Assembly: GCA_044222065.1 (NCBI GenBank)
Contig: JBGAOA010000023.1
Coordinates: 1-55,211 of the forward strand
Direction: 5' to 3'
DNA length: 55,211 nucleotides
From: Candidatus Eiseniibacteriota bacterium
GTDB taxonomy: Bacteria; Eisenbacteria; RBG-16-71-46
In this document: positions 30,097 to 49,806 of the stretch, in pieces
Position numbering within the stretch: position 1 is the stretch's first letter
Layout of the letters: each line of letters starts with the position of its first letter
The notes under the pieces: generated by a model
What the model saw: only the letters and a program-made list of their open reading frames with translations
What the model was told of the DNA's origin: nothing
Databases searched by the model: none
Made by a program: the position numbers and the translations under genes

Positions 30097-30873
30097 CTAG
30101 CGATAGAGCTGCTTCACGCGGCCCCACGTGGACGCCTTCGACGGCGTCAGCTGGAAGCACGCGTCGTCGAACGTCGTACCGACGCCCATGTTGTCGACCG
30201 AGAAGCCCCAGTCCGCCGTGCCGACGTACGCCGGGCTCGCCGGGAGCGTGGCGGCCGTGGCGCTCTGACGCAGCGCGATCGTCGAGATCGCGATCGAGGT
30301 CGCCGCGGCGTTGGTGTTCGTGACGCTCGGGCTCGCCTGGTTCGACGGGTTGACCCACAGCGTCGAGGTCTTCGCGACCGGGTCGTACGCGATGACGATG
30401 CGGTACGACTGGTCGTAGTTGAGCGTCGTCGCCGACCACGGCGTGACGCCGACCGTCGCGCTCGTGCTGCCGTGCGAGATGCCGAACGTCCAGCCACCGC
30501 TGATCGGCAGCACGTACACGCGAGCGACGAAGTTCGCCGTGCCGGCGTCCTTCAGCGCGACGCAGTAGATCGGCTTCGGCGCGGCGGCGACCGCCGGGAT
30601 CATCATCTCGAAGCACGCATACGTCGTGTTCGTGAGCGTCTGCGCCGTGAAGAAGCGGTGATCGTCGTTCGCGTTCGGGCCCGAGCCGACGGCGCGGCCC
30701 GCGATGACCTGGACGTCCGTCGCAGCGCCGCTGAAGTTGGCCCAGCCACCGTTCGGGACGAGATTCCCGTTGGCGTAGCTGAAGCCCTCGGAGAGCAGCA
30801 CCGTCGCGAACGACGGGGCCGCAGCCAGCACGAGCAGGGCGCCGGCGAGAACCGCAATAGCAGTCTTGCGCAT
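30097..30873 (-). CDS. Secreted beta-sandwich (LamG/ConA-like) protein with C-terminal TWGRVKQLYR tail
   Basis: Signal peptide ending APSFA; Ser/Thr/Asn-rich beta-strand sequence; C-terminus TPSKASTWGRVKQLYR*. Confidence 0.85.
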   Translation of the reverse strand: MRKTAIAVLAGALLVLAAAPSFATVLLSEGFSYANGNLVPNGGWANFSGAATDVQVIAGRAVGSGPNANDDHRFFTAQTLTNTTYACFEMMIPAVAAAPKPIYCVALKDAGTANFVARVYVLPISGGWTFGISHGSTSATVGVTPWSATTLNYDQSYRIVIAYDPVAKTSTLWVNPSNQASPSVTNTNAAATSIAISTIALRQSATAATLPASPAYVGTADWGFSVDNMGVGTTFDDACFQLTPSKASTWGRVKQLYR

Positions 30874-31275
30874 GAAAGGGGGCTCCTCTGTTGCGTGACC
30901 ATGGTTGTCGAGGTGTCTCGGAGCCAGCCGCGGGGGGCCGTGCCGGAATCCGTCACCCGCTGATGTCGAACCCGTGAAACGGGGTCGGGCAACCCCCACG
31001 ACGAGCTCACGGGCAGGTCATGGAATTTCGACGCAGAAATGGTAGTGGACCGCGGTGCGCCGGAGCAAGCCGAATGTGCCGTCAGGGCCGAGAGTTGCGC
31101 GGACGGTAACCCGGTTTCATCGAGTTGAAACACGTGCGCTTCGAGCGGGGGACAGCACCCATCTGCGCGGGCATTTGGGCCACCCGGCCAGGACCCCGAA
31201 GCGGAGCGGGGGACGGCCTCTTCGAGCGCTCGTCGGTCCCGGGGGCGGCGACGGTCGAGGCATTTGCCCCTCCCG

Positions 31276-32064
31276 TCAGCGCGCGGGCCGCGCTGCGGCC
31301 GGCTTCCCGGCCCTGAGCCAGGTGTGGAGCGCGTTGAAGATCTGGAACAGGGCGAAGCCGCGCGTGAGCAGGTCCCGGGGGACCCGCTGGGCCACGACCG
31401 AGGACGCGAGCGCGCCGACCGCGGCGCCCAGCGCGAGCCAGCCGACCAGCTTCCAGAGCACGTTCCCGAGCCGCGAGTGTTCCCACGCGCCCGAGGGCGC
31501 GGTGACGAGGATCACGGCGAGCGACGTGCCCTGCGCGAGCGGCTGCGGCATGCCGAGCAGCAGCGTGAACGCCGGCACCGCGAGCACGCCGCCGCCGACG
31601 CCCATGAAGCCCGCGAGCAGGCCGACCGTGGCGCCGAGCGCCACGTCGAAGGCGAACCGCGCCGCGGGCGCGAGGGCGGGCGCCGTCGCCGCGGGCGCGC
31701 CGGCCGACCACAGCATGCGCAGCGCGACGAGCACGAGGAACACGGCGAACGCGCGCTTGAGCTGCGCCGACGACAGCCGCGACGCGAGCCGCGCGCCGTA
31801 GCGCGCCGTGAGCGCGCTCGCGAGTCCGACGAACGCCGCGGTCGTCCAGTCGACGTTGCCGTTCGCGCCGTACACGACGAGCGACGCGATCGCGGTCGCG
31901 CCGATCACCGCGAGCGACGTGCCGTGCGCCTGGTGCTGCGTGGCGGCGAACCAGCCCGTGAGCAGCGGGATCAGGAAGATGCCGCCGCCGACGCCGAACA
32001 GTCCGCCGAACGCGCCCGCGATCACACCCGCCCCGATCGAGCGCGCGCGATCGCGGGCGTTCAT
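31276..32064 (-). CDS. Sulfite exporter TauE/SafE family protein (two repeats)
   Basis: GLFGVGGGIFLIP...AHGTSLA and GFMGVGGGVLAVP...AQGTSLA. Confidence 0.9.
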   Translation of the reverse strand: MNARDRARSIGAGVIAGAFGGLFGVGGGIFLIPLLTGWFAATQHQAHGTSLAVIGATAIASLVVYGANGNVDWTTAAFVGLASALTARYGARLASRLSSAQLKRAFAVFLVLVALRMLWSAGAPAATAPALAPAARFAFDVALGATVGLLAGFMGVGGGVLAVPAFTLLLGMPQPLAQGTSLAVILVTAPSGAWEHSRLGNVLWKLVGWLALGAAVGALASSVVAQRVPRDLLTRGFALFQIFNALHTWLRAGKPAAARPAR

Positions 32065-32068
32065 TCGC

Positions 32069-33034
32069 TCACTCGGCCGGGGCGAAGCTCGCGGGCGCCG
32101 TGCGCTGGATGAGCCGCACGACGTCGGCGAAGCGCGTGGCGTTCGTCGGAGCGCCGAGCACGACCGCGATGAGGTCGCGGCCCTGCGTGCGGATCCAAGT
32201 CGCGAAGCAGTAACCGGCCTCGTTGATGAAGCCGGTCTTCCCGCCGACGATCTCGTAGTCGCTGTAGAGCAGACGGTTCGTGTTCCCGATGAAGTGCGAG
32301 CGCTTCGCCGTCGCGAACTCGTACTTCTGCGTCGTCGTGATCTCGTGGATCAGCGGGTTCTTCGCCGCGACCTCGAGCACGCGCGCGATGTCGGCGGCCG
32401 TCGAGACGTTCCGCTCGTCGAGACCCGTCGTCTCGACGTAGCGCGTGTGCGTCATGCCGAGCGCGAGCGCCTTGCGGTTCATCGCGGCGTGGAAGTCCTC
32501 GCGCGACAGGCCCGACTCGCGCGCGATCACGCGCGTCGCGCAGTTGTCCGACACCATGAGGCTCATGCGCAGCAGGTCGCTCAGCACGACGTGTTCGTTC
32601 GGGCGCAGCTGCGTGTGGCCGGCGCCGGTCCAGTCCTCGCGCGTGACGACCACCTCGCGCGAGAGGTCCGGCTTCTGCTCGAGGAACACGAGCGCCGTCA
32701 TGAGCTTCGTGAGGCTCGCGATCGGCACCGTGCGGGTCGAGTTCTTCTCGAACAGCACCTGGTCCGTCGTCGGGTCGAGCACGATCGCGTTGCGCGCCCA
32801 GACGCCTCCGGGCGGCGGCGTGCGCCGGCGTGCGCGACGCTTGGACGACGCCGTGCGCTTCTTGCCGGCCTTGCTCCCGGCGCTCGCGACGGACGACTTC
32901 GAGGCGCGTGAGGGCGCGCTCGACTTCGAGGTGGATCGGGCTGGGGCGGTGGCGGCTTCGACCCTCGTGGTCGGCCAGGCCACCAGCGCGGCCAGGAGCA
33001 GGAACGTCCCGGCGCGCCAGGCGCGCTGCGTCAT
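32069..33034 (-). CDS. D-Ala-D-Ala endo/carboxypeptidase (S11, PbpG-like)
   Basis: Signal peptide; PIASLTKLMTA (SxxK), SDN, KTGFINEAGYC. Confidence 0.9.
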   Translation of the reverse strand: MTQRAWRAGTFLLLAALVAWPTTRVEAATAPARSTSKSSAPSRASKSSVASAGSKAGKKRTASSKRRARRRTPPPGGVWARNAIVLDPTTDQVLFEKNSTRTVPIASLTKLMTALVFLEQKPDLSREVVVTREDWTGAGHTQLRPNEHVVLSDLLRMSLMVSDNCATRVIARESGLSREDFHAAMNRKALALGMTHTRYVETTGLDERNVSTAADIARVLEVAAKNPLIHEITTTQKYEFATAKRSHFIGNTNRLLYSDYEIVGGKTGFINEAGYCFATWIRTQGRDLIAVVLGAPTNATRFADVVRLIQRTAPASFAPAE

Positions 33035-33267
33035 GAAATCTCCTCCGCGGACGTCCGCGTGAGCGCGGACGAACCGAAACCATCCGTGGTATCGGCAGAA
33101 CAGCGAGCGGCACTTTACGTTTCGATCGCGGCAGGGGTCAACGCGGATTCGCGAGATTCGTCCTCGGGTCGAGCGGGCCGCGCGAGGCGACGCATCCCGC
33201 CCGATCGGCCGCGCGAGCCGTGCGCGCCGCCCGCGCGAGCAGCGCGCGCGGGGCATTCGGCCCGGAC

Positions 33268-35001
33268 TCAGCGCGGCTTCGTCGCCGCGAGTTCGCGCAG
33301 GATCTCGTCGCGCACGAGCGGCAGCGCGACGCCGCTGCGCCGCAGCAGCGCGTCGTGGAACGCGCGCGGAGAGACGCCCGGCCCGAGCGTGCGGCGCACC
33401 TCGTCGCGCAGTTCGAGGATGCGCCACTTGCCGAGCGTGTAGACGAGGTACGTCGGGTCCGCGGCGCCGCGCCGCGCCTCGCGCGCCGCCGTGACGGGCG
33501 ACATGCGGCAGCGCGACTCGAACAGCGCCTGCGCTTCCTCGACGGACATGCCGCGCGTGTGGAGCGACAACCCGACGACGAACCGTCCGACGCGCCGCAG
33601 CGCCGCGAGCTGCTGCGCGAATTCGGCGCGCGGATCGCCGCCGCCGAAGCCGGCCTCGACGGTCATTTGCTCGCAGTAGTGCGCCCAGCCCTCGGTCGCG
33701 CTCGCGCACGGAAACGCCTGGCGGATGCGCGAGCGCAGCTCGCGGCGCGCGAGCGCGTCCCACGCGTGTCCCGGGATCGCCTCGTGGATCGTCACGTTCG
33801 CCGCCGCCCAGCGGTTGAAGAACCGCAGGTGGTCGTGCCGCTGCGCCGCGGTCCAGCCCGCCTCGGGCGGCGTGACGTTGTAGAACGCGCGCACCGAACC
33901 GCGCTCCCACGGCCCCGCCGACTCGAGCGAGGCGAACGACAGTCCGCGGCGGAAGAGCGGCGTCTCGCGCACGACGATCTTCTGGCGCGCGGGCGGCGTG
34001 ACGAGGTCGCGAGCCACGACGAAGTCGCGGATCGAGTCGAGCAGGCTCGCGACGAACGGAACGAGTTCCGCTTCCGTCGGGGCGTCGCGCTCGACCGAAT
34101 CGAGCGCGGCCGCGACGTCGCCTCCGGGCGCGATCCGCGCCGCGAGTTCCGCGAGCCGCGCCTCGAGCCGCTCGAATTCGCGGACGCCGAGCGCGAGCAG
34201 CGTGTCGGGGTCGGCGGTCTCGAACTCTTCGGCCGCGAGCTTTTTCGCGTACAGCTCGCGGCCGAGCGCGAACGAGCCGGTCGAACGCGCGAGGATCTCG
34301 CCGCGCAGCGCGCCGAGGAATTCCTCCGTCGCGCGCACCGCCTGCGTGTCGGCCTCCGCGAGCGCCGCCTGCAGGCCGGGGTCGCGGCAGTCGGCGGTCA
34401 GCTCGCCGATCGTCACGCGATAGAAGCGCAGCGCGCCGTCGAACTGCCCGATCGCGATCTCGGTGTAGATCCGCGGCGGGTCCTGCAGTTGGAGCCGCGC
34501 GGCGCGCAAGATCTCGGGCACGACGCGGAGCCGCCGCGTCGCGCGCACGACGCGCGCGCACGGGCTTCCGGCTTCGCTCTGCAGCACCGACTGGATCGCG
34601 CCCGCGACGAGGTCGAGGTAGCTGCTCGGGTCGCGCGCCCACGAGCGGATCTCGGCGAGCTGGAGCCGCTCGCGTTCGAGCCGCGCGCCGAGGATGCGCG
34701 CGTCCACGGCGCGGTCGGGTGAGAGCGCCTCCGCGGGAATCGCCGCGAGCTCGGCGCGCGCTCGCGCGATCCACTCGAGATCGGACGCGACGCTCGCGGG
34801 CGTGACCGGAAGCAGCACGGCGTCGAGGTCGTGGCGGCCGAGCCGCGTCGCGAGCTGCGGACGGCGGCGCAGGAACTCCTCGAGCACGCGCGCGGAAGTG
34901 CGGTCGAATCGGGCGTCGGCGTCTGCGGCGAACGCCGGCGCCGCGGCGGCGCACGCGAGCGCGATCGCCGCGGCCGCGAGCAGCGCGCGCCGGGGCGTCA
35001 T
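33268..35001 (-). CDS. DUF885 family secreted protein
   Basis: Signal peptide; HEAIPGH, EGWAHYCE, YLVYTLGK, FHDALL. Confidence 0.88.
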   Translation of the reverse strand: MTPRRALLAAAAIALACAAAAPAFAADADARFDRTSARVLEEFLRRRPQLATRLGRHDLDAVLLPVTPASVASDLEWIARARAELAAIPAEALSPDRAVDARILGARLERERLQLAEIRSWARDPSSYLDLVAGAIQSVLQSEAGSPCARVVRATRRLRVVPEILRAARLQLQDPPRIYTEIAIGQFDGALRFYRVTIGELTADCRDPGLQAALAEADTQAVRATEEFLGALRGEILARSTGSFALGRELYAKKLAAEEFETADPDTLLALGVREFERLEARLAELAARIAPGGDVAAALDSVERDAPTEAELVPFVASLLDSIRDFVVARDLVTPPARQKIVVRETPLFRRGLSFASLESAGPWERGSVRAFYNVTPPEAGWTAAQRHDHLRFFNRWAAANVTIHEAIPGHAWDALARRELRSRIRQAFPCASATEGWAHYCEQMTVEAGFGGGDPRAEFAQQLAALRRVGRFVVGLSLHTRGMSVEEAQALFESRCRMSPVTAAREARRGAADPTYLVYTLGKWRILELRDEVRRTLGPGVSPRAFHDALLRRSGVALPLVRDEILRELAATKPR

Positions 35002-35726
35002 GGGCGCGGGACGACGTCCTTCACGAGCGTCATGGGGTCGCCGACCTTGAGCGGCGACGTCGCGAGGAACGCCTGGCCGTGCTTCACGCCGATCTGCCAG
35101 CCCCAGTAGCGCGAGTAGGCTTCGAACGCTTCGCGCGGATGCGGCTGGTTCGCGGGCCGCGGCCGGTCCGGGTGGTAGAACTGCGTCTGGTGACGGTCGA
35201 TCGCGTCGAGCCAGGGCCCGACGAAGTCGGACACGTCCACGACAAACGTCGGCGGAGTTCCCGGCGGGAGGAAGTAGAAGTAGATCGCGCGCGCCTGGTG
35301 CGGCTCGCCCTCGATCGGCGCCTTCGAAAGGTGCGCGAGGTTGTATGCGTTCGCGACGATCTGCCCGCTCTTGTAGTGGTCGTTGTGCCCGAGCCCGCGG
35401 CCGATCGGCAGGTGGTAGTACGGCGCGAGCACGATGGACGGCCGGTGGCGGCGGATCATCGCCGCGGCCTTGCAGCGGTTCTCGAACGTGTCCTCGATGC
35501 GGCAGTCGCCGAGGTCGAGGTTCTCGCGCACGTCGATCTTCAGGATCGCGGCGGCCTCGTCGCTCTCGCCCTTTCGCAGTTCGGGCGTGCCCCAGCCCAT
35601 GTCGCCGGTCGTCATGTCCACGATGCCGGTGCGATGACCGAGGCTCTTCAGCTTGAGCAGCGTCGCGCCGCATCCGATTTCGGCGTCATCGGGATGCGGA
35701 CCGAAGGCGAGAACGTCCACCGGCAT
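34998..35726 (-). CDS. PIG-L/LmbE deacetylase, BshB1-like
   Basis: AFGPHPDDAEIGCGATL, DMTTGD, HNDH; ATGA overlap with the DUF885 gene. Confidence 0.85.
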   Translation of the reverse strand: MPVDVLAFGPHPDDAEIGCGATLLKLKSLGHRTGIVDMTTGDMGWGTPELRKGESDEAAAILKIDVRENLDLGDCRIEDTFENRCKAAAMIRRHRPSIVLAPYYHLPIGRGLGHNDHYKSGQIVANAYNLAHLSKAPIEGEPHQARAIYFYFLPPGTPPTFVVDVSDFVGPWLDAIDRHQTQFYHPDRPRPANQPHPREAFEAYSRYWGWQIGVKHGQAFLATSPLKVGDPMTLVKDVVPRP

Positions 35727-35870
35727 ACGGGGTCTCCGAGCGAGAAGAGGCGCGGCCGAGGGTGGGGGCGGCGAGTGCGGCGTGCGGTGCGCGCGGCGTG
35801 TATCATAGCCACCGCTTCTCGACCGAACAAACCTCTCGGGCGCTCGCCGCGCGCCCACGAATGGGATGCG

Positions 35871-36386
35871 ATGCTGTACTTCGCCTTCGCCTCGAACATG
35901 GATCCGGTGCAGATGCGCCACCGCTGTCCCGACGCGCAGGTCGTCGGGCTCGCGGCCCTGCACGACCACCGCCTCGGGTTCCCGCGCTGGTCGGACGACT
36001 GGGCCGGCGGCGTCGCGAGCCCGCAACTCGCGCACGGCGAGACGCTGTGGGGCGTGCTCTACGAGGTGAGCGAGGCGGATCTGCGCGGCGCCGACGCCTA
36101 CGAGGGCTTCCGCGGGCCCGGCGACCAGCACAACGCCTACGACCGCGAGAGCGTGTGGGTCGAACTCGTGCGGGCCGACGACGGCTCGGTGCCGCGGCGC
36201 GTGCGCGCGCAGATCTACCTCGCGCGCCCGGCGAATCCGGCGCCGCCCTCGCGCCGCTACCTCGACGCGATCGTGCGCGGGGCGCGCGCGCACCGCCTGC
36301 CGGACGAGTACCTCGAGAAGCTCGCGCGCATCCCGGCTGCCGAAGCGCCGGTCGAAGGCGCCGGAGACCCCGCGCTCGGCGCGTAG
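35871..36386 (+). CDS. Gamma-glutamylcyclotransferase (AIG2-like)
   Basis: LYFAFASNM, WGVLYEV, DAYEG, PSRRYL..I..GA..H.LP.EY. Confidence 0.88.
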   Translation: MLYFAFASNMDPVQMRHRCPDAQVVGLAALHDHRLGFPRWSDDWAGGVASPQLAHGETLWGVLYEVSEADLRGADAYEGFRGPGDQHNAYDRESVWVELVRADDGSVPRRVRAQIYLARPANPAPPSRRYLDAIVRGARAHRLPDEYLEKLARIPAAEAPVEGAGDPALGA

Positions 36387-36528
36387 GCTCAGTCTGCGAA
36401 GCTCGATTGCAGGGCGAGAGCGAGCGCGTCGCACGCTTCGCGTGGGTGCCCCGACGGCGTGTGCTCCTGGACGCTCCGCAGCGACGAGCGAGCAGGCCAC
36501 GCGGCCAACGAGCTTCTCGGACTGAACC
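36386..36528. repeat. Structured intergenic repeat, divergent copy C
   Basis: Outer stem 36386-36405/36509-36528 (18 of 20 paired); internal TGCAGGGCGAGAGCGAG and CTCCGCAGCGACGAGCGA resemble copies A and B. Confidence 0.6.
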
Positions 36529-36538
36529 GGACGCCACC

Positions 36539-37732
36539 TCAGCGCCCGCGCGCGAATTCCGCGAGCGCGCGACGCACCTCGGACTCCAGTTCGCGCCACG
36601 CCGCGCGCAGCTCGCGCGCGTTTGCGCGGCAGTAAGCGCTCGCGACGCGCGGATCGCTCGCGGCGAGCCGCGTCGCGCTCGCGAAGCCCGGCCCCGCGAG
36701 ACGCCGCCGCGCGTGCGGCGCGCCGATCCGCCGCAGCGCGGTCGCGAGCACGTACGGCAGGTGACTCGTGCGCGCGAGCGCGCGATCGTGACGCGCGGCG
36801 TCCACGACGAGCGGCCGCGCGCCGAGCGCCGCGACGAACCGGCGCGCGAGCCGCGGCACGCCGCCTCCGAGCGGCAGCAGCGCGAACGGCGCCCCTTCGA
36901 ACAGCTCCGTGCGCGCAGACGCGAAGCCGCGGCCCTCGTGTCCCGCGATCGGGTGTCCGCCGATCGCGCGCACGCCGCGCCGCCCCGCGGCGGCGAGCGC
37001 CGGCGTCACGGGGCCGCGCGCGCTGCCCGTGTCGAGCAGCACGACGCCGCGCGGCAGCGCCGCCGCGGCCTCGGCGATCGCCGCCGGCAGCGCGTCCACC
37101 GGCACCGCGATCACCGCGAGCTGCGCATCGCGGCACGCGTCGGCGATCGAGCGGGCCGCGCGTTCGATCGCGCCCGCGCGCCGCGCCGCGCGCCGCGCGC
37201 CGGCGTCGAGGTCGAAGCCCGTGACGCGCCAGTCCCGTGAGCGGGCGAGTGCGCGCGCGATCGAACCGCCGATCTGCCCGAGCCCGACGATCGCGACGCG
37301 CGTCGCGTCCGGCCGCGCACTCGCGGACCCGGCCGCGTGCAGGTCGGGGCGCAGCGCCTCGGCGCCGTCGAGGTACACGGGCGTGAGCCGCGCGCCGCGC
37401 CGCACGCCGCGCAGCGTCACGAGCACGCGCACGATGCGACGCGGCGCGCCGGGCACGCCGAGCTCCGTCGCGCCGAGCAGCGGCACGTCCTCCCATCCGA
37501 GCCGCCGCGCGGCGTGCGCGGGGAAGTCGGCGTCGAGATCGGGCGTGCTCGTGAAGAGCGCGCTCACGACGTTCGCGGGCGTGAGCCGGTTCTCGTCGAG
37601 CATCGCGCGCAACAGCCGTGCGGTCGCCGTGCGGATCGCTTCGGACGTGTTCGCGGGCGCCTGGATCGCGCCGCGCAGCGCGGCGATGCCGCCGTCGTGG
37701 ACGCGTGCGCGTGCGCGCGGGGTGCGGGTCAT
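36539..37732 (-). CDS. aroH-tyrA: Fusion of AroH-class chorismate mutase and prephenate dehydrogenase (TyrA)
   Basis: N-half LRGAI...SALFTSTPDL..FPA..AR..GWEDVPLL...VYLDGAEALRPDL; C-half IVGLGQIGGS, DTGS, GGHPIAGHE, HDRALARTSHLP, TRLAASDP. Confidence 0.9.
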   Translation of the reverse strand: MTRTPRARARVHDGGIAALRGAIQAPANTSEAIRTATARLLRAMLDENRLTPANVVSALFTSTPDLDADFPAHAARRLGWEDVPLLGATELGVPGAPRRIVRVLVTLRGVRRGARLTPVYLDGAEALRPDLHAAGSASARPDATRVAIVGLGQIGGSIARALARSRDWRVTGFDLDAGARRAARRAGAIERAARSIADACRDAQLAVIAVPVDALPAAIAEAAAALPRGVVLLDTGSARGPVTPALAAAGRRGVRAIGGHPIAGHEGRGFASARTELFEGAPFALLPLGGGVPRLARRFVAALGARPLVVDAARHDRALARTSHLPYVLATALRRIGAPHARRRLAGPGFASATRLAASDPRVASAYCRANARELRAAWRELESEVRRALAEFARGR

Positions 37733-37769
37733 CGGGTCCTCCTCGGGATGCGCTCGCGAGGCGGGCACG

Positions 37770-37801
37770 AAAAAACCCACCTCCGCGATGCGGAAGTGGG
37801 T
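37770..37801 (-). terminator. Attenuator terminator upstream of aroH-tyrA
   Basis: Minus strand ACCCACUUCCGC-AUC-GCGGAGGUGGGU followed by UUUUU, 38 nt before the structural gene start. Confidence 0.85.
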
Positions 37802-37817
37802 GCGTGCGCGACGCGCG

Positions 37818-37886
37818 TCAGGCCCGGACCCACCCCGCGAGGGGATAGGCGTAGGCGTACGGGCGGAGCGCGCGGTCGGCGTTCAT
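37818..37886 (-). CDS. Leader peptide (22 aa) MNADRALRPYAYAYPLAGWVRA
   Basis: Short ORF with three clustered Tyr codons plus one Trp, immediately upstream of the terminator and aroH-tyrA. Confidence 0.8.
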   Translation of the reverse strand: MNADRALRPYAYAYPLAGWVRA

Positions 37887-37896
37887 GACGGCGATC

Positions 37897-37926
37897 ACGC
37901 TACGCAGCGGCGGGCGGCGCGGTCAA
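37897..37926 (-). promoter_or_regulatory. Putative sigma70 promoter for the tyr leader
   Basis: Minus strand TTGACC-N18-TAGCGT, 10 nt upstream of the leader ATG. Confidence 0.5.
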
Positions 37927-37950
37927 CGGCGAAATGCCACGGCGCCCGGC

Positions 37951-41292: not shown

Positions 41293-41643
41293 TCAGTTCG
41301 CGATCCAGAGGCGCGCGGCGACCACGACGAGCAGCACGGCGAACGCACGCTGGAGCGCGCGCGGCGGCAGCGCGAGGCCGATCTGGGCGCCGAGCCAGGC
41401 GCCCAGGAAGAGCCCGGCCGCGAGCAGGACGGCGGCGCGCGGATCGATCTCGCCGCGCTTCCAGTACTGCCAGGCGCCGAGCAGCCCGACCGGCAGGAGC
41501 AGCGCGCCGAGCGACGTGCCGGTCGCCTCCTGCGGCCGCATGCGCGCGAGCAGGACGAGCGCCGGCACGATCACGATGCCGCCGCCGATGCCGAACACGC
41601 CCGACAGCACGCCGGCGGCGAGTCCGATGAGGGCATAGACCAC
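41293..41643 (-). CDS. Half-size (single-repeat) TauE/SafE family protein
   Basis: 116 aa; GVFGIGGGIVIVPAL...ATGTSL; GGAGG upstream. Confidence 0.85.
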   Translation of the reverse strand: MVYALIGLAAGVLSGVFGIGGGIVIVPALVLLARMRPQEATGTSLGALLLPVGLLGAWQYWKRGEIDPRAAVLLAAGLFLGAWLGAQIGLALPPRALQRAFAVLLVVVAARLWIAN

Positions 41644-41711
41644 GGGGAGTCCTCCGATCCGCGTGCGGCCCGCACGCGCGGGCAGCATAGCCGCGTCCGC
41701 CGCGCGCGCCG

Positions 41712-41751
41712 AAAAACGAACCGCCGCGCCCCACGGCGGGAGCGCGGCGGT
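41712..41751 (-). terminator. Intrinsic terminator after the boxB-like gene
   Basis: Minus strand ACCGCCGCGCUCC...GGGGCGCGGCGGU followed by UCGUUUUU. Confidence 0.75.
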
Positions 41752-41768
41752 CGCGGTGCCGGAGCGGC

Positions 41769-43109
41769 TCAGTTCGTCGGCGACGTGTTGGCCTTGTCGG
41801 CCTCGGAGCCTTCCATGACCCAGCGCACGCTGCGCGAACACGGGCACGTGCCGCCGACGCGCTTGAGCTTCGGCATCGCCTTGATGCCGTCCGCCTGCGC
41901 CATCTCGCCGGCCGCGACCTTGCGCAGCACGCTCGCGTAGTTCTGCACGTCGCGGCTCGCGCAGTAGCCCTCGTTCAGGTTCCGCGACAGGTAGCGCAGG
42001 TACTCGTCGGCGTCCGCGAACGCCTCGCCGTCCACGCCGATCATCTGGAACGCGCTCTCGCCCTTGCGGCGGAAGAAGCGTTTGTCCGGGATGCGCAGCA
42101 GGTCCGCCATCTTCATGCCGCGGTGCGTGCCGCGCGTCTCCTCGAGGTCCGCGATCACCTGCTCGGCGCGCTCGGTGTCGTACTCGGGGAAGCGCGCGCG
42201 GACGAAGCGCACGTTGATGTCGCGGATCATCTTCCGCACTTCCTCGTAGTACTGGTCCTGCGCCTCGCGGTTCTTCAGGTCCTTGAAGCCGAACTTCACG
42301 TTCGTGTCGCCGCCGCGTTCGTCGCCGAACATCTCGAGCCCGCGCGGCAGCCACTTGTTCAGCGCGTGCTGGATGATCGCCATCGTGACGAACGGGTCGC
42401 CGCTCGCCGCCTTCTGCGCCCAGCGCCGCAGCGGGATCACGCCCGCGGCGAGGTGGAACGCCTCCTCGCGCAGCATCGGCGGCATCGAGTCGGCCATGGG
42501 CTTGTAGGCGCACACCTTCTGCATCGTGAGCTGGTACTTGCCGACGCGGTCGATGAGCGCGGCGAACACGATGTTGTCCACGAACGAGTCGTACTCGACG
42601 TTGAACGCGTCGAGCACGTGATTGCCCGTCTGCATGGACAGGATCTCTTCGACCATCTGCGGGCCCGTCACGCCGCCCGAGACGTGCGACCAGTCCTCGC
42701 TGAGCAGCAGGTGCAGCATCTGGTAACCGTGCCGCAGCTCCTCGGCCATGACGCGCATGACCCAGTAGCGGTCCTGGTCGTCGAACGCGCGCTCGAGCGT
42801 TCCCGAGTGCTGCTGGATCGAGCCGAACTCGGTCGAGGCCTGCGCCTTGATGATCGCGAGCAGGTGGCGCGCCTGCTCCTCGGTCAGCTCGTTCGGCTTC
42901 AGGCGCTTCTTCTCGCCCTTGAAGTCGCCGACCTGCACCGTGTCGGACGTGCCGAGCTCCATCTTCGCGCACAGGCAGAACTCTTCGTCCTGCGGGAAGT
43001 ACTTCTGCCAGTGGTCGAGGAGCTGCTGGTACTCCTTGAAATTGTGCCGGTGCCAGTGCTCGACGGCGTCGTGGTACTTCTTCTCGAGCTGAACGTTCTC
43101 GACCTTCAT
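41769..43109 (-). CDS. Ferritin-like diiron aryl-CoA epoxidase subunit, BoxB/PaaA-like
   Basis: QASTEFGSIQQ, EELRHG, DRVGKYQL, LREEAFH match the BoxB-type E..ExxH..D..ExxH ligand pattern. Confidence 0.75.
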   Translation of the reverse strand: MKVENVQLEKKYHDAVEHWHRHNFKEYQQLLDHWQKYFPQDEEFCLCAKMELGTSDTVQVGDFKGEKKRLKPNELTEEQARHLLAIIKAQASTEFGSIQQHSGTLERAFDDQDRYWVMRVMAEELRHGYQMLHLLLSEDWSHVSGGVTGPQMVEEILSMQTGNHVLDAFNVEYDSFVDNIVFAALIDRVGKYQLTMQKVCAYKPMADSMPPMLREEAFHLAAGVIPLRRWAQKAASGDPFVTMAIIQHALNKWLPRGLEMFGDERGGDTNVKFGFKDLKNREAQDQYYEEVRKMIRDINVRFVRARFPEYDTERAEQVIADLEETRGTHRGMKMADLLRIPDKRFFRRKGESAFQMIGVDGEAFADADEYLRYLSRNLNEGYCASRDVQNYASVLRKVAAGEMAQADGIKAMPKLKRVGGTCPCSRSVRWVMEGSEADKANTSPTN

Positions 43110-43122
43110 CGGGTCCTCTCGC

Positions 43123-43578
43123 TCACGGGCGGAGCTGGATTTCGAGGGCCTCGAGCGGCGACGGGGCGAAGCCCAGCGCCTTCAAGAAACCCGCGACGTT
43201 CGGTTCGTTGCGGTCCACGAGCGTGCGGACGGTCGTCGCGCCCGCCTCGGCGAAGTGCCGGCGGATCGCGTCGAACATCAGCTTGCCGAGGTCGCGTCCG
43301 CGGTAGTCCGGGTCGATGCCGAAGCGTTCGATCCAGCCGCTCGCCTGTTCGATGCCGAACTCGCCCTCGCGGACGTCGCCGAGCATGAACCCCACGACCT
43401 TGCCGTCCACCTCGACGACCTTGGAGCCGTCCGGGTCGCGGCGCAGGTAGTACATGACGCGGCGCTCCCAGATCTCGGGCCGGTATTGCCCGCTGATCCG
43501 CTCGTCGATCTTCGTGATGGCACCGATGTCCAGCTCGTTCACGGGGCGGATTCTGGTGGCTGACTTCGTCTCGGGCAT
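43123..43578 (-). CDS. GNAT family N-acetyltransferase
   Basis: VVGFMLG, FGIDPDYRGRDLGKLM (motif A), GFLKALGF. Confidence 0.9.
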   Translation of the reverse strand: MPETKSATRIRPVNELDIGAITKIDERISGQYRPEIWERRVMYYLRRDPDGSKVVEVDGKVVGFMLGDVREGEFGIEQASGWIERFGIDPDYRGRDLGKLMFDAIRRHFAEAGATTVRTLVDRNEPNVAGFLKALGFAPSPLEALEIQLRP

Positions 43579-43894
43579 GTCGAACCTCGAGGTGTGGGGG
43601 GTGGAAAAAGGCGCGGGGAGAGTATCAGGTCGCCGCGCGAAGCGTCAGGCCGGCGGCCCCGCATTCGCGGGCCCCCCACGCCGCTCGGCCGGCCCCCGGT
43701 TCCCCCGCTCGAGGCGTTCCGGGAAGGGCGAATCGCCTTGAGTTGGCCCGGAAGCAACGGCAAAATGTTGGCGCCTGACCCTGGGGCCGTCGCCCCGAAT
43801 CAAAGTGCCGCGCGCGCTTCGAGCGTGCCCCGTGCCCTGCATCCGTGCCCGTCGTCGAACGAACTCATCCGGGCAATCTCGCTCTGGAGGCCGC

Positions 43895-44842
43895 ATGATC
43901 CGACGTTTCGTCACCACTCTCGCGCTCCTCGCGCTGTGCGCGCTCCCGGCCCGCACGGCGCTCGCCGTCGCGCTCGATTCGCCTGCCGTCGCCGTGGACG
44001 CGATCGGCCACGGCAAGGTCCGGCTCACGATCACCGCGGGGCCCTCCGGCGCGCCCAGCGGATTCGGCGTCTACTGGATGACCGCCGAGGACTACGCCAA
44101 CTACGGCAGCGTGTGGCCCTCGATCCTCTCGTACCCCGGCCTCGGCTGGTCCATGTTCACGGGCGCGCCGACGCTGAACACGTTCGGCGAGTACTCGACC
44201 TTCGCGCTCGGCCCGAACGAGACCATTCGCATCGAGCTCGGCGATCTCGGCGGCGAGAGCGGGCTGACCACGAACTCTCCCGAGGAACTCGCGTCGGGCA
44301 CCGAGTACGTGATCTGCACGTTCGCGCGCGGCGGCGGCGGTTTCACGACGAGCGGCTTCTCGACGAACGCCGTGAGCACGCTGACGCTCCAGGGCCAGAA
44401 CTGCACGTTCACGATCGGCTATTGGAAGACGCACGGCCCCGCGGGCTGCGTGACGGGCAACAACTCGAACGCCTGGCCGGTCTCGAGCCTCACGCTCGGC
44501 ACCGTGAACTACGGCGCGTCGCAGCTCTGCAGCATCCTGAACCAGAGCCCGGCCGGGAACGGCCTGGTGACGCTCGCGCACCAGCTGATCGGCGCGAAGC
44601 TCAACATCGCGAACGGCGCGAATCCCGGGGCCGCGGTGCTGGCCTGCATCAGCTCCGCGGACGCGCTGATCGGCGGACTCGTCGTGCCGCCGGTGGGCGG
44701 CGGATCGCTTTCGCCGGGGACGACCTCGTCGCTCACGCAGTGCCTCGACGACTTCAACAACGGCCTGTCGGGAGTGCCGCACTGCTCGTCCACGCCGTCG
44801 AAGCCGACGAGCTGGGGCCGCCTCAAGACGCTCTACCGCTGA
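43895..44842 (+). CDS. Secreted protein (Fn3-like N-part, CTxTxGYWKxH domain) with C-terminal SWGRLKTLYR tail
   Basis: GGAGG RBS, signal peptide, CTFTIGYWKTH...LAHQLIGAKLNI, C-terminus TPSKPTSWGRLKTLYR*. Confidence 0.85.
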   Translation: MIRRFVTTLALLALCALPARTALAVALDSPAVAVDAIGHGKVRLTITAGPSGAPSGFGVYWMTAEDYANYGSVWPSILSYPGLGWSMFTGAPTLNTFGEYSTFALGPNETIRIELGDLGGESGLTTNSPEELASGTEYVICTFARGGGGFTTSGFSTNAVSTLTLQGQNCTFTIGYWKTHGPAGCVTGNNSNAWPVSSLTLGTVNYGASQLCSILNQSPAGNGLVTLAHQLIGAKLNIANGANPGAAVLACISSADALIGGLVVPPVGGGSLSPGTTSSLTQCLDDFNNGLSGVPHCSSTPSKPTSWGRLKTLYR

Positions 44843-44857
44843 GCCCGGCTGGAACCG

Positions 44858-44895
44858 AAGCGGCCCCCTTCTCGCGAAGGGGGCCGCGTTCGTTT
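44858..44895. terminator. Intrinsic terminator between convergent genes
   Basis: GCGGCCCCCTTC-TCGC-GAAGGGGGCCGC then GTTCGTTT. Confidence 0.75.
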
Positions 44896-44942
44896 CGGCC
44901 CTCGAGCCACGGCGCCTCGCGGCGCCGTACGATCGGCGCCGC

Positions 44943-46358
44943 CTAGAGCACGGTGACGCGCGCGGGCATCTCGGCCTCGGCGTTCCAGTGCGCGGGTTCG
45001 CGCCGGTGGACGACGTCGATGCGCATGCGCTCGACCGGGTCCCAGTGCCAGCCGAGACGCGCGGGGATGCCGCCGTCGCTGTGGTTCCAGCGCAGTCGCG
45101 GCACGTCGCCGCACAGCGCGTCGGCGAAGTCGGGATCCACCGCCTCGGCCGGCGCCCACGCGCCGTCGAACGCGTCCGAAAGCTGGCGCAGCGTCCGCCG
45201 CCCCGCCTGGTGATGGCGCTCGAGCTGGTGCGCGAGCCAGTTCACGACGCGCGGCCGCAGGTCCGAGAGCACGTTGAAGCAGTCGTGCGCGCCGCGCGGG
45301 TAGAAAACGATCTCGCGCTCGCAACGCGCGTCCTCGAAGATGTGCCACGCCTCGCTCGCGGGCGTGATCATGTCGCGGCCGCCGCCGGAGACGAACAGCG
45401 GGCAGCGCACGTCGTCGAGCACGTCGGCGAGCGTGATGCGTTCGATCGTCGCGCCCATGTCGCGCTCCGCGATGCCGTACAGGTTCGCGAGTTCGCGGCG
45501 CATGCTCGACAGCGTGACGTTCCAGTAGATGTCGGCCGAATACGGCGGGCTCACGGTCGCGACGGCGCGGATGCGCGGGTCGTGCGACGCCATGCGGATG
45601 GCCATGTAGCCGCCGAGGCTCATGCCCATGAACGCGACCGCGTCGGGATTCAGGTCGGGCCGCGCCTCGATGTGGTTCAAGATCGCGACGCCGACGGGCC
45701 GCGGCTCGGCGACCATCGAGAGCCGGTGGAACGTCGAGCCGAGGCCCGGACCGTCGAACATCGCGACCGCGAGGCCGCGCGCGAGCAGCGCCTCGCTCCA
45801 CCAGTGCAGCTCTTCCTTCACGGCGTTCGTGCCGTTGAACACGACGACGACGGGCGACGGCGAGCCGGTCGGGGGCACGCGCAGGTAGCCTTTCATCGGG
45901 CGGCGCCGGTACATCACCTCGAACGGCTGCGCCGGCACTTCGAACAGCGGCGCGGCCTTCGCGTACGAACGCACGCACGCCTCGTGCAGCGATCGCTTGC
46001 GGTCCACGTCGAGGAAGATGACGTACTGCGCGAAGTTGTAGGCCGCGCTCGCGGCCAGGTAGCGCCGCGCCGCGTCGGCGGGACGTTCGAGCCGCAGTGC
46101 GTCGTCGCCGCCTTGCTCGTGCGCGCGCCCGAGCGACTCCCACTCGTCGGCCCACGAAGTGAGGCCGTCGATCCGCCGCAGCACGCTCTCGAGATCGTCG
46201 GGCGACACGCCGGCGTTCGTGAACTGGAGCTTCGCCCACGCGGGCATCTGCTGGGCGAATCCGAGGCGCAGCGAAAGACGGACGAATCCGGGGCGGAGGA
46301 GCTGGCTGCGCAGGTAGTGCGGCACCAGGAACTCGAGCCTTCCGCCACGGACGTTCAT
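44943..46358 (-). CDS. Alpha/beta hydrolase (2,6-dihydroxypseudooxynicotine hydrolase/FrsA-like)
   Basis: KEEL, FDGPGLG, GMSLGGY nucleophile elbow, D in GRDMI, GAHDC; extra C-terminal segment. Confidence 0.85.
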   Translation of the reverse strand: MNVRGGRLEFLVPHYLRSQLLRPGFVRLSLRLGFAQQMPAWAKLQFTNAGVSPDDLESVLRRIDGLTSWADEWESLGRAHEQGGDDALRLERPADAARRYLAASAAYNFAQYVIFLDVDRKRSLHEACVRSYAKAAPLFEVPAQPFEVMYRRRPMKGYLRVPPTGSPSPVVVVFNGTNAVKEELHWWSEALLARGLAVAMFDGPGLGSTFHRLSMVAEPRPVGVAILNHIEARPDLNPDAVAFMGMSLGGYMAIRMASHDPRIRAVATVSPPYSADIYWNVTLSSMRRELANLYGIAERDMGATIERITLADVLDDVRCPLFVSGGGRDMITPASEAWHIFEDARCEREIVFYPRGAHDCFNVLSDLRPRVVNWLAHQLERHHQAGRRTLRQLSDAFDGAWAPAEAVDPDFADALCGDVPRLRWNHSDGGIPARLGWHWDPVERMRIDVVHRREPAHWNAEAEMPARVTVL

Positions 46359-46466
46359 GTCTGCCTCGCGCGCGCGTGCGCGGTCGAAGGGGGTGGGGCG
46401 GCGCCGGGGGGCGCCGCCCCGTGGGGGATCGAAGTCGCCGGGATGCGGGCGACGACTCCGAGGAAT

Positions 46467-46482
46467 TGCACCGGACATGCCA
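46467..46482 (-). promoter_or_regulatory. Putative sigma54 promoter
   Basis: Minus strand TGGCAT-GTCCG-GTGCA (GG-N10-GC) about 110 nt upstream of the hydrolase start. Confidence 0.55.
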
Positions 46483-46656
46483 CGAGCGGCGCGCGGCCGA
46501 GCGCGACAACATGCGGAGTATCGGCCGTCTTCGCGCGATTCCGAGGCGGATTCCGCGGGCGATTCGCACGAACGGCCGCCGCGAGAGCGCTCCGGGCTGG
46601 GGAAGTTTGCGCTCGGCGCGGGCGAGGCGCCCCGGCGCCGGTGCGGCGGGCCCGCC

Positions 46657-47553
46657 TCAGCCGCGCGCGACGCGCGCGCGGTAGGCGGCGAGCAGGCGCT
46701 CGCCGATCGCGCGGCCCGGCATCACCCGGCTCCCGAGCCGCGCGATCGGCACGACCTCCTGCACCGAGTTCGTCAGGAACACCTCGTCGGCGCCGAGCGC
46801 GTCCTCGGGAGTGAGCACCGCCTCGCGCACCGGCAGCTCGAGTTCGGCGCACAGCGCGATCACGGTCGCGCGCGTCACGCCGGGCAGGATGCCGCTCGCG
46901 AGCGGCGGCGTGCTCACCTCGCCGCTCCGGACGACGAACACGTTCGAGACCGCGCCTTCGAGCAGCTCGCCGCGCGGCGAGACGAGCAGCGCCTCGTCGG
47001 CGCGTGCGGCGCGCGCTTCCTCGCGCGCGAGGTGGTAGGCGAGGCGGCTCGTCGTCTTGTGCGCGCCGAGCGAGCCCGGCTCGAACGGCACCTTCGAGAA
47101 CACGGCGGTCGCCTCGTTCCGTCGCGCCCCGGCCCAGAGCCGCGCGGTGACCGGCTCGACCTCCATCCAGGCGCCCGTGCGCGTCGGGCGTCCGCCGGGA
47201 ATGCCGCGCGTCACCGTGAGCCGCGCGACGGCGTCGAGCAGGCCCTCGGCGGCGAGCAGCTGCGCGAGCGCGTGCCGCAGCCGCGCGGGCGCGGGCGGCA
47301 CCGGGAAGCCGAGCACCGCGGCCGAGAGCACGAGGCGCTCGAGGTGCTTCTCCCACAGAAACGGCTCGCCGCCGTAAAGCCGCACCGTCTCGAACAGCCC
47401 TTCGCCGTCGCGCGCGCCGCGGTCGAAGAGCGACAGGAACGCCTCGTCGCTCTTCACGAACTCGCCGTTCACCCACAGCGTGCGTTCCGGGAGCCGCGCG
47501 ACGCGTTCGCGACCCTGCGGCGTGCGCGTGTGCGGCGAGCGGGCGGTCGGCAT
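46657..47553 (-). CDS. pabC: Aminotransferase class IV, probable 4-amino-4-deoxychorismate lyase
   Basis: DRG..DGEGLFET, HLERL, RLTVTRG, HKT, EGAVSN, GILPGVTR, ADEVFLTNS; adjacent to pabB. Confidence 0.8.
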   Translation of the reverse strand: MPTARSPHTRTPQGRERVARLPERTLWVNGEFVKSDEAFLSLFDRGARDGEGLFETVRLYGGEPFLWEKHLERLVLSAAVLGFPVPPAPARLRHALAQLLAAEGLLDAVARLTVTRGIPGGRPTRTGAWMEVEPVTARLWAGARRNEATAVFSKVPFEPGSLGAHKTTSRLAYHLAREEARAARADEALLVSPRGELLEGAVSNVFVVRSGEVSTPPLASGILPGVTRATVIALCAELELPVREAVLTPEDALGADEVFLTNSVQEVVPIARLGSRVMPGRAIGERLLAAYRARVARG

Positions 47554-47595
47554 GCGCGGCACGCTAGAAGGCGCGGCCGAGCGGCGTCAACGGTT

Positions 47596-49035
47596 TCACG
47601 CGCGCGCGGCGACCGCGCGCTCGCCCAGGCTCACGTCCGCGCCGAGCGCGTCCGCGATCGCGACGCGCATGCCCTCGGCCTTGGCGAGCGTCTCTTCGTA
47701 CTCGGCGTCCGCGTCCGAGTCGGCCGTGATGCCGCCGCCGGCGGCGAAGTGCAGCGCCTCGCGCGTCGCGGTCGCGGTGCGGATCGCGACGTTCCAGTCG
47801 GCGTCGCCGTTCCAGTCGAGCCAGCCGATCGCGCCCGTGTAGACGTGGCGGCGCACGGGCTCGAGCGACTCGAGGATCTCCATCGCGCGGATCTTCGGCG
47901 CGCCCGTGATCGAGCCGCCGGGAAAGCAGGCGGCGAGCAGATCGAACGCGTCCACGCCCGGCGCGAGCCGTCCCGCCACCGCCGAGGTGAGGTGATGCAC
48001 CTGCGCGAACGTCTCCAGCTCGAACAGCGCCGTCGTCTCGACCGATCCCGGCACGCACACGCGCCCGAGGTCGTTCCGCAGCACGTCCACGATCATGACG
48101 TTCTCGGCGCGGTCCTTCTCGCTCGCGAGCAGTTCCGCCGCGAGCCGCGCGTCCTCGGCGCGCGTCGCCCCGCGCGGCCGCGTGCCCTTGATCGGGCGCG
48201 TCTCGACGCGCCCGCCCCGGAGTTCGAGGAAGCGCTCGGGGCTCGAGGAGGCGACCGCGTGGTCGCCGAACCCGAGGAACGCCGCGAACGGCGCGGGCGA
48301 TCGCGCGGCGAGCGACTCGAGCAACGCGAGTCCGCGCGCGTCGGGCGGCGCGGGCGGCAGCGCGAGCGACCAGCGCTGCGACAGGTTCGCCTGGAAGAGA
48401 TCGCCGCGCGCGATGTGGTCCCGCACCCGCTCGACCGCGGCGCGATAGCCGGCGCGCGAAAACGTCGAGTGCGCGACGAGCGGCGCCGCTCCGGACTCGT
48501 GCGGCCGCGCCGCGCCGCGCTCGCCGCCGTCGACCGCGGCCGCGATCCGGCGCGCGAACGCCTCGAGTCGCGCCTCGGCGCGCGCCCACCGCGCGTCGCC
48601 GCGCTCCGGAAGGCCGCTCGACACGAGCGTGCACGCGCCGCTCGCGCGCTCGATCGCGAGCACGACGTCGTAGAAGCCGAGCGCGAAGTCGGGCAGCCCG
48701 AGATCGTCGGCGGCGAACGACGGCAGCCGCTCGAGGCGCCGACCGAAGTCGTAGCTCCAGTAGCCGACGGCGCCGCCCGCGAACGGCGGGCGGCCGAGCA
48801 CGAGCGCGTCGTCCGCGGTCTCGCGCGCGAGCGCGCGGAAGCGCGCGACGACCTCGCTCCAGTCGCCGCCGCGCGCGGCGAAGAACGGATCGGCGCCGGC
48901 GAACGACCAGCGCGAGCGCGGATCGTCCGCCGCCGCGTGGAGCAGGAACGGCTGCGGCAGCGCCGCGAGCGTGCGCAGCGCCGCGAGCGGCGCGACGGGC
49001 GGGAGCGGGCGGACGAGCGGGAGCGGGGCGTTCAT
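47596..49035 (-). CDS. pabB: Aminodeoxychorismate synthase component I
   Basis: SSSPERF, TRPIKGTRPRG (PIKGT is diagnostic of PabB), KDRAENVMIVDVLRNDLGR, FPGGSITGAPK. Confidence 0.93.
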   Translation of the reverse strand: MNAPLPLVRPLPPVAPLAALRTLAALPQPFLLHAAADDPRSRWSFAGADPFFAARGGDWSEVVARFRALARETADDALVLGRPPFAGGAVGYWSYDFGRRLERLPSFAADDLGLPDFALGFYDVVLAIERASGACTLVSSGLPERGDARWARAEARLEAFARRIAAAVDGGERGAARPHESGAAPLVAHSTFSRAGYRAAVERVRDHIARGDLFQANLSQRWSLALPPAPPDARGLALLESLAARSPAPFAAFLGFGDHAVASSSPERFLELRGGRVETRPIKGTRPRGATRAEDARLAAELLASEKDRAENVMIVDVLRNDLGRVCVPGSVETTALFELETFAQVHHLTSAVAGRLAPGVDAFDLLAACFPGGSITGAPKIRAMEILESLEPVRRHVYTGAIGWLDWNGDADWNVAIRTATATREALHFAAGGGITADSDADAEYEETLAKAEGMRVAIADALGADVSLGERAVAARA

Positions 49036-49203
49036 CGGAGGCGCGAGCCTAGGCTCGCGGCCGCGGTGGGGGCCAGCGGCGAGCGGCGGCGACGGGGCGG
49101 GCCGCGCCGCGCGCGGTCCGGCTGGCCACTTTTTCCTTGAGGCAGCCCCGCGGCCTTTCTAGAATTTCCGGCCACTCCCACTCCCTACGACACGGAGGCT
49201 CTC

Positions 49204-49806
49204 TTGCGGCTCGTCACCCCGCTTCGCATCGCACTCGCCTTCCTCGCCGCGCTCGCGGCGCCCGCCAGCGCCCAGATCGTCAACGGTTCGTTCGAGCCCT
49301 CGTCCGCGATGGGCAACTACGCGGCCCTGCCGGGCGGCTCGACCGCGATCCCGGGCTGGGTCACGACCGACACCGGCGTCGAGTGGTACAAGCCCGCCGC
49401 CTTCGGTGACGTTGCGGCGCCGAACGGGCTCTACGTCGTGGACCTCGCGAACTACATCTTCTCGGCGGGCGGGATCCAGCAGACGATCCCGACGGTCGTC
49501 GGGCAGGCGTACGTGTTCCAGTTCTTCCTCGGTACGAACCAGCAGTCGGGCCGCGACGGAACGTGCGAGATCGTGGTGAGCGCGGCGGCGCAGTCGCAGA
49601 CGTTCACGCACGTGAACCACGCGACGCTCACGACCTGGGCGCTGCAGTCGTTCCCGTTCACCGCCACGTCGACCACGACGACGCTGTCGCTGCGCTGCCT
49701 GCAGAACGCGAACCTCCACTTCGCGCTCGTGGACGGCGGCGAGCTGCTGACGCCGCTGTCGGCGACGCCGGGCACCTGGGGCGCGATCAAGCGGCTCTAC
49801 CGCTAG
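49204..49806 (+). CDS. Secreted DUF642/choice-of-anchor-C-like jelly-roll protein with C-terminal TWGAIKRLYR tail
   Basis: TTG start after GGAGG; signal peptide; IVNGSFE..GSTAIPGW..VDL..GGIQQT..FTAT; C-terminus TPLSATPGTWGAIKRLYR*. Confidence 0.85.
   Translation: MRLVTPLRIALAFLAALAAPASAQIVNGSFEPSSAMGNYAALPGGSTAIPGWVTTDTGVEWYKPAAFGDVAAPNGLYVVDLANYIFSAGGIQQTIPTVVGQAYVFQFFLGTNQQSGRDGTCEIVVSAAAQSQTFTHVNHATLTTWALQSFPFTATSTTTTLSLRCLQNANLHFALVDGGELLTPLSATPGTWGAIKRLYR

Follow-up and report, generated by a model that had tools for sequence, protein, structure and literature searches.

A 17-residue C-terminal tag on small, probably exported proteins of an Eisenbacteria genome and a candidate lipoprotein–barrel system for its docking and display

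The window analyzed here is a 55,211-nucleotide stretch of DNA, contig JBGAOA010000023.1 (C54) of the 4.2-Mb genome of a Candidatus Eiseniibacteriota bacterium (assembly GCA_044222065.1; 72% GC, 94% complete), which encodes three predicted exported proteins that end in a shared 17-residue tail, referred to below as the TWG tail. A sequence-only reading of this DNA had quoted the three C-termini and proposed that they act as a sorting signal. Translation gave all three as quoted, with the gene at 30097–30873 read from the minus strand; the plus-strand frame there encodes an unrelated Arg-rich sequence. The genes and their parts, together with one exported protein of the same window that serves as a contrast, are as follows:

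30097..30873, minus strand: tail-bearing protein 1, 258 residues, with a signal-like N-terminus and no family match
30100..30150, minus strand: 17-residue TWG tail of protein 1, the part predicted to dock in the pocket of the lipoprotein LipB (see below)
30805..30873, minus strand: predicted Sec signal peptide of protein 1, about 23 residues
43895..44842, plus strand: tail-bearing protein 2, 315 residues, with a signal-like N-terminus and no family match
43895..43966, plus strand: predicted Sec signal peptide of protein 2, about 24 residues
44789..44839, plus strand: 17-residue TWG tail of protein 2
49204..49806, plus strand: tail-bearing protein 3, 200 residues, in which passenger residues 24–177 match DUF642 (PF04862) and, under the cut-off, choice-of-anchor C (TIGR04362)
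49204..49272, plus strand: predicted Sec signal peptide of protein 3, about 23 residues, with a TTG start
49753..49803, plus strand: 17-residue TWG tail of protein 3
15007..18375, minus strand: exported protein of 1122 residues without a TWG tail, carrying a C-terminal FlgD_ig/type IX-like domain (match at 15067–15237)

Signal peptides in this list were placed from the sequence and a heuristic, and the tails from the sequence and a position-specific scoring matrix (PSSM). The three passengers are unrelated, with a best pairwise BLASTP E value of 0.40, and are not full-length homologs; only protein 3 had a family match in Pfam and NCBIfam scans. All three begin with a basic–hydrophobic–Ala, signal-like start. 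In these respects the description given by the sequence-only reading held up.

Our analyses revealed that the tail is a repeated and strictly terminal element. In all six frames of the whole genome, the pattern [ST]WG.[VLIMF]K..Y matched 41 times, and all 41 matches lie within two residues of a stop codon (39 one residue before it and 2 two residues before it); the chance of a position lying that near a stop is 2.8%. The tail PSSM returned 50 matches with a cut-off of 12 bits, of which 46 are terminal; with a cut-off of 30 bits it returned 46, every one terminal. One nonterminal match (contig C52, 29 bits) runs off the contig end. Hence, 46 reading frames of the genome end in the tail, bearing out the earlier expectations that the motif would be confined to C-termini and that many copies would be found. 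Gly, Lys and Arg are conserved in 46 of 46 tails and Trp in 45 of 46, at a fixed spacing to the stop, and the invariant residues extend as far as the final one, as expected if the tail is bound along its whole length. The tail is basic, amphipathic and Trp/Tyr-rich, with a mean hydrophobic moment of 0.53 at 100 degrees that is no larger than the 0.55 found at 170 degrees. It lacks a hydrophobic stretch of membrane-spanning length, as the first reading had noted.

A profile built from 42 tails found matches in 146 of 151 genomes of the phylum, with counts per genome that run up to at least 54 and fall to 0 to 6 in family f7. The same profile gave 1331 matches among 1.84 billion representative proteins; in the best 150 of these, the motif starts 10 to 11 residues from the end in 148, and none is longer than 381 residues. 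No Pfam or NCBIfam model covers the tail in the 40 tail-matching proteins scanned (a set that includes the contig-end case on C52), consistent with the earlier statement that it matches no known sorting family. Nor did any of these 40 proteins match a folded Ig-like C-terminal domain (PF18962, TIGR04183, PF13860). The TWG tail is thus a real, widespread and uncatalogued C-terminal tag.

The 46 passengers fall into 30 clusters, and the domains recognized among them include choice-of-anchor C, V and X, ScyF-like NHL propellers, DUF4114, lamin-tail, GEVED and cupredoxin. A signal-like start is present in 37 of the 46, compared with 1211 of 3153 other genes (38%) scored by a similar hydrophobicity heuristic on our home-made gene calls; three of the nine tail proteins that lack one touch contig ends. 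Together with the terminal position, these data support the proposal that the tail is a modular tag on exported proteins that co-occurs with signal peptides. Tail passengers are small, with a median of 233 and a maximum of 319 residues (38 proteins with an assignable start; 8 of the 46 were left out). Passengers of proteins with a type IX-like C-terminal domain (CTD) in this genome have a median of 532 residues (n = 205), and 73% exceed 350 residues. The largest cluster, a 12-member, Cys-containing family, occurs in tandem arrays at C25:5351–10390, C15:43–1115 and C38:62809–65474. In 28 of the 46 tail proteins, a Cys lies 9 to 17 residues before the tail Trp.

The question raised at the outset, whether the same passenger families carry other sorting tags elsewhere, was answered in the affirmative. 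In a set of 90 proteins related to protein 3, a strict pattern recognized a terminal TWG-type tail in 51, whereas 10 end in a PEP-CTERM-like segment and 29 are unclassified, most of the last carrying visibly variant tails. Similarly, one passenger of this genome has two versions that are 44% identical, one ending in the tail and the other in a weakly matching FlgD_ig domain. None of the 212 CTD proteins of this genome carries a TWG tail.

A barrel-and-lipobox screen of the genome led to a candidate reader locus of three adjacent genes on contig C95, outside the window:

C95 28699–30840, minus strand: predicted barrel, 713 residues
C95 28037–28696, minus strand: LipA, lipoprotein, 219 residues
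C95 27276–28040, minus strand: LipB, lipoprotein, 254 residues

Scans of these proteins yielded no Pfam or NCBIfam match except a weak one of LipB to SnoaL_2, and 35 barrel relatives gave only four stray single Pfam matches. LipA is homologous to LipB (hhalign, 98.7%). The order barrel–LipA–LipB recurs across families of the phylum, in several of them behind an rsmA-like gene (named from its sequence). LipB itself provides an independent tie between the locus and the tag. It has the most tail-like C-terminus (20.8 bits; next, 4.7 bits) of all 3305 other predicted proteins, and a tail-like end follows the domain in 40 of 58 LipB relatives (hereafter, sockets). The operon LipB copies of several other families stop just past the domain and have no tail of their own.

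In the AlphaFold model of LipB (predicted local distance difference test, pLDDT, of 86), the protein forms an NTF2-like domain, a cone-shaped α+β fold with a pocket, and all Foldseek and VIA matches are NTF2-like (Z score 14.3, root mean square deviation, rmsd, 1.8, 121 aligned residues). LipB's own tail is modeled with pLDDT values of 93 to 95 and is preceded by a loose, low-confidence linker; this monomer model is compatible with docking of the tail in cis. The barrel was modeled (pLDDT 86) with ∼28 strands, counted from the element list, and short N-terminal helices, and without a plug domain. Fold searches with the barrel yielded only generic barrels, the best Foldseek match being MtrB (PDB 6r2q_B; TM score 0.40, rmsd 14.4, 9% identity; VIA Z score 15.2, rmsd 10.9). 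No sequence relative of LipB or of the barrel was found among solved structures. In the ESM Atlas, LipB matched unnamed lipoprotein clusters (0.92 to 0.94) of Gemmatimonadota and Bacteroidota, and the barrel gave only weak generic porin leads. The other barrel candidates of the genome were set aside as TonB-dependent receptors or as PorV-family, PopA-like or glycoside-related proteins; one candidate, C99:15709–17238, had no match in the family libraries. The genome also contains the first part of another barrel gene copy, truncated at a contig end and adjoining mreB/mreC/mreD-like genes (C48:7483–7722, plus strand), and a second socket lipoprotein with a degenerate tail of its own, between trmD-like and rplS-like genes (C20:70401–71126, minus strand).

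Prediction of a complex between LipB residues 14 to 183, from which LipB's own tail had been removed, and the tail of protein 1 gave a score of 0.86, whereas the best of three controls reached 0.02. The runs agreed in at least 96% of contacts, with a partner pLDDT of at least 67. In a benchmark, which applies roughly here as our own alignments were used, 116 of 157 solved complexes attained this mark, as did 2 of 215 mismatched pairs. The docked cargo tail is predicted to form a short strand and one helix, with all 17 residues in contact; specifically, Lys26 lies near Asp76/Glu77, Trp22/Gly23 near Asp179, and Tyr29 near residues 80 to 84. The TP linker noted in the first reading falls inside the predicted binding element, with residues 14 to 30 of the 30-residue tail segment contacting the partner. 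The pocket is conserved among 58 sockets (Asp179 in 57, an acidic residue at position 77 in all 58, Phe55 in 52), and conservation at the 13 closest-contact positions is 0.61, compared with 0.46 overall and 0.48 for the full interface. Thus, the model supports binding of the cargo tail in the LipB pocket, with docking in trans predicted in the complex.

The distribution of these components was followed in the 151 phylum genomes and in a cross-phylum set of 50 genomes sampled from 120, all chosen by a PorV-family motif; neither sample contained Poribacteria. In the cross-phylum set, 7 genomes have at least 15 tails, 3 have one or two matches and 40 have none. Sockets together with a strong barrel match were found in 6 of the 7 tail-rich genomes, three of these six barrels having been part of the query alignment. 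Within the phylum, the tail (146 of 151 genomes) and the socket (140 of 151, by profile) are both nearly universal, so phylogenetic profiling at this level is uninformative. A single-protein socket search that had split off family f7 (0 of 32) was not upheld by the profile (24 of 32). Direct searches of two Gemmatimonadota genomes (G155 and G164) returned no socket match. One of the tail-rich genomes, labeled Coatesbacteria (G197), has 17 tails and five socket-like genes, and one labeled Polyangiaceae (G176) has two tail matches and no sockets found, which may reflect contamination or transfer.

Outgroup genomes with few or no cargo tails (labeled Ignavibacteria, Calditrichia, KSB1, Kapabacteria and others) point to an origin for the tag. 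In these genomes, LipA and LipB are often a tandem pair. Outgroup LipA ends in a C-terminal helix with the consensus TWSxLKG and an invariant Trp, 5 to 12 residues past the last strand; outgroup LipB stops right after its last strand and keeps Phe55, the acid at 77, Leu130 and Asp179 in 17 of 17 cases. A profile of 20 outgroup LipA ends found one match in 20 of 26 genomes, two in one and none in five; the profile includes the preceding strand, and divergent cargo tails could escape it. In the phyla without cargo tails, the LipA end is the only such end found. The tail-like helix of LipA and the retained pocket of LipB in genomes without cargo tails thus make the tag look like a copied lipoprotein docking helix. 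As outgroup LipA keeps the pocket residues too, docking in cis and in trans are indistinguishable here. From these unrooted comparisons we infer that the cargo tag would be a copy of the LipA C-terminal helix that came to be carried by dozens of small exported proteins within one group of phyla. The proposed link of the tag to an ancestral LipA helix is new. Two genomes (G154 and G168) have a complete barrel–LipA–LipB operon with a strong barrel match and no detected cargo tails; this operon is a candidate for the ancestral state.

We propose the following mechanism. A small passenger would be exported by the predicted Sec route and would then fold in the periplasm. Its 17-residue tail, which would not be cleaved, would plug into the conserved pocket of an NTF2-fold lipoprotein (LipB and its relatives) and, where LipB has a tail of its own, would displace it by exchange. 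The docked cargo would be held at the outer membrane and then passed through the wide, plug-less barrel, resulting in noncovalent display on the surface; simple tethering of the cargo is an alternative last step. We favor this explanation as a whole, comprising docking, holding at the outer membrane and likely surface passage, with moderate confidence. The docking step taken by itself is probable, and export through the barrel is a serious possibility at somewhat below even chances. We prefer passage through the barrel over tethering because of the gene linkage and the cargo size ceiling, which would reflect that passage. The first reading's idea of a modular export or surface-anchoring tag read by special machinery is supported, with the qualification that a protease or transpeptidase is not indicated and noncovalent docking is favored instead.

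Several observations weigh against this explanation. None of the three tail genes in the window is close to the barrel–LipA–LipB operon. Socket-like genes are present in 22 of the 43 tail-poor genomes of the cross-phylum set and barrel matches in 20 (18 weak and 2 strong, in G154 and in G168, whose barrel was in the query alignment), and family f7 retains the operon with 0 to 6 tails. The machinery thus has a wider distribution than the cargo tag, and in this direction the two do not strictly co-occur. The earlier claim of a dedicated machinery is favored by the candidate operon and the predicted docking, but strict dedication does not hold, as genomes that have no cargo tails contain relatives of the lipoproteins and of the barrel. 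Conversely, G151, the seventh tail-rich genome of that set, has 46 tails and no socket or barrel match was found in it; all 15 of its relatives examined, several of which overlap the phylum sample, have both, making an assembly gap plausible. Nor was a socket match found in G121, an 87% complete genome with 23 tails. Scored with the strict cargo matrix, the outgroup LipA ends give weak values: 3 of 16 (all Calditrichia) reach 16.5 bits and the rest 4.6 or below. Further, the complex model may show merely the site of LipB's own tail and not access of cargo to it, and the end location of the cargo and the contact between barrel and lipoprotein are proposals only.

The closest alternative is that the tail serves solely as a noncovalent tether to socket lipoproteins on either face of the outer membrane, the barrel doing another job or exporting only lipoproteins; by extension, sockets with their own tails could chain head to tail into a scaffold. 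This explanation shares the evidence of the LipB tail, the complex prediction and the pocket conservation, and it gains from the many stand-alone or tandem socket paralogs that carry a tail and from the barrel relatives that are unlinked in phyla without cargo tails. It also gains from a socket (NTF2-like) domain fused to a type IX-like CTD at C45:42824–43723 on the minus strand (E value of 1.8e-12 to a CTD profile built from this genome, no Pfam match), suggesting type IX secretion as the route of some sockets to the surface. However, barrel, LipA and LipB are adjacent across the phylum, and a sharp ceiling on cargo size is expected of a pore and less of a tether, and we consider tethering without barrel passage unlikely.

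We judge it less likely still that the tail is a minimal address for the type IX machinery SprA/PorV/PorU, cut and anchored like a type IX CTD. That machinery is at hand: the genome encodes SprA, PorV and PorU, with at least eight PorV/PorQ-family loci over the cut-off and three C25 peptidases, which also serve ∼211 proteins with terminal FlgD_ig-like CTDs. In addition, tail and FlgD_ig domain swap on one passenger, and a CTD gene lies within two genes of 20 of 40 called tail genes compared with 18% of others. Yet the tail has no Ig-like fold and no PF13860 or PF18962 match, its invariant residues run to the last position as whole-tail binding would have it, and its predicted pocket is on a protein that does not belong to the type IX system. 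In addition, 43 of the 50 PorV-motif genomes have two tail matches at most, although selection of all 50 by PorV means that this count is no measure of dependence on type IX secretion. A receptor-free role, in which a basic, amphipathic, Trp/Tyr-rich helix would adhere to lipopolysaccharide or the membrane surface, agrees with the composition of the tail, but the conservation of Gly, Lys, Arg and Trp at fixed spacing to the stop goes beyond the needs of lipid binding, and a specific pocket is predicted; this role is highly improbable. As a separate observation, a second PorU-like C25 protein without a C-terminal CTD-like end is encoded at C38:54333–58454 (minus strand), ∼4 kb from three tail genes.

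Comparison with known systems places the proposed docking and display mechanism apart from each of them. Like the type IX type A CTD (TIGR04183, PF18962; PF13860-like FlgD_ig here), the tail combines a Sec signal with a C-terminal tag on unrelated passengers, many per genome, and would involve a wide outer-membrane barrel, and either tag can occur on the same passenger in this genome. In contrast, it has 17 residues and not a folded domain of 70 to 80, its predicted reader is an NTF2-fold lipoprotein and not a PorV barrel, the barrel is modeled with ∼28 strands and not the 36 of SprA, and the tail bears no sign of cleavage on cargo of at most 319 residues. PEP-CTERM/exosortase systems (TIGR02595, PF07589, PF09721) likewise use a short C-terminal tag, at least 20 per genome, on the same kinds of small passenger (choice-of-anchor C, V and X, ScyF-like, DUF4114), which is a likeness of role and not of membership; they differ in that the tail has no transmembrane helix or Arg cluster after it and no intramembrane protease is implicated. 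This genome has one exosortase, in a polysaccharide locus, and one PEP-CTERM match; an exosortase was considered as the tail reader, and no link between it and the tail was found. In Haft's preprint (10.1101/2023.06.07.544157), short sorting signals are defined as a motif plus a transmembrane helix plus a basic cluster. With neither a transmembrane helix nor a folded domain, the tail is distinct from LPXTG, PEP-CTERM, GlyGly-CTERM and the type IX CTD, as the sequence-only reading had argued, and likewise from MYXO-CTERM.

In type V pili, a C-terminal element of one lipoprotein fills a groove of the next subunit and so builds a polymer. The proposed docking would resemble this arrangement, and that of cohesin–dockerin pairs, in that a C-terminal element fills a lipoprotein groove, sockets carry their own copy and the docking is noncovalent and many-to-one; it differs in the NTF2-like fold, the strand-plus-helix donor and the cargo, which consists of unrelated proteins and not of subunits. 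The MtrB barrel (PDB 6r2q_B) houses a folded partner protein and, like the candidate, is wide and without a plug domain of its own, although the match is generic. Finally, the BamA β-signal places an aromatic last residue on an integral β-barrel, whereas the final core residue of the tail is Arg in all 46 cases and its passengers match soluble domains.

We found no paper describing the tail or the operon in a search whose coverage excluded most subscription journals and supplements. The consulted passages of PMC3909097 and PMC5596340 mention only the TIGR04183-type domain. A more far-reaching form of the proposal, which we regard as tentative and rather doubtful in its entirety, is a new export and display pathway of several uncultured phyla, in which a LipA-derived 17-residue helix would dock by tail exchange in an NTF2-fold lipoprotein, pass its cargo to a ∼28-strand barrel and hold it uncleaved on the surface, with sockets chaining into a scaffold; the ancestral LipA–LipB–barrel core would be an unrecognized outer-membrane machine of Ignavibacteria, Calditrichia, KSB1 and Rhodothermaceae. 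The C-terminal sorting signals known from bacteria fall into two classes, membrane-spanning tails that a protease cuts and folded domains that the type IX system reads. If real, a soluble tag of 17 residues recognized by a lipoprotein pocket would fit neither class, would account for where ∼1% of the proteins of an entire phylum reside, and would show a sorting signal arising by copying of a docking helix. The tail and LipB are a directly testable peptide–protein pair. Ignavibacterium, Caldithrix and Rhodothermaceae are cultured bacteria, and the presence of the ancestral genes in such groups leaves the core machine open to study even though the tail-rich phylum is uncultured.

Elsewhere in the window, two open reading frames at 18517–19893 on the minus strand are joined by an in-frame TGA within a thioredoxin-type WAPW-(TGA)-HTC motif that follows a signal peptide, and this locus likely encodes an exported selenoprotein.

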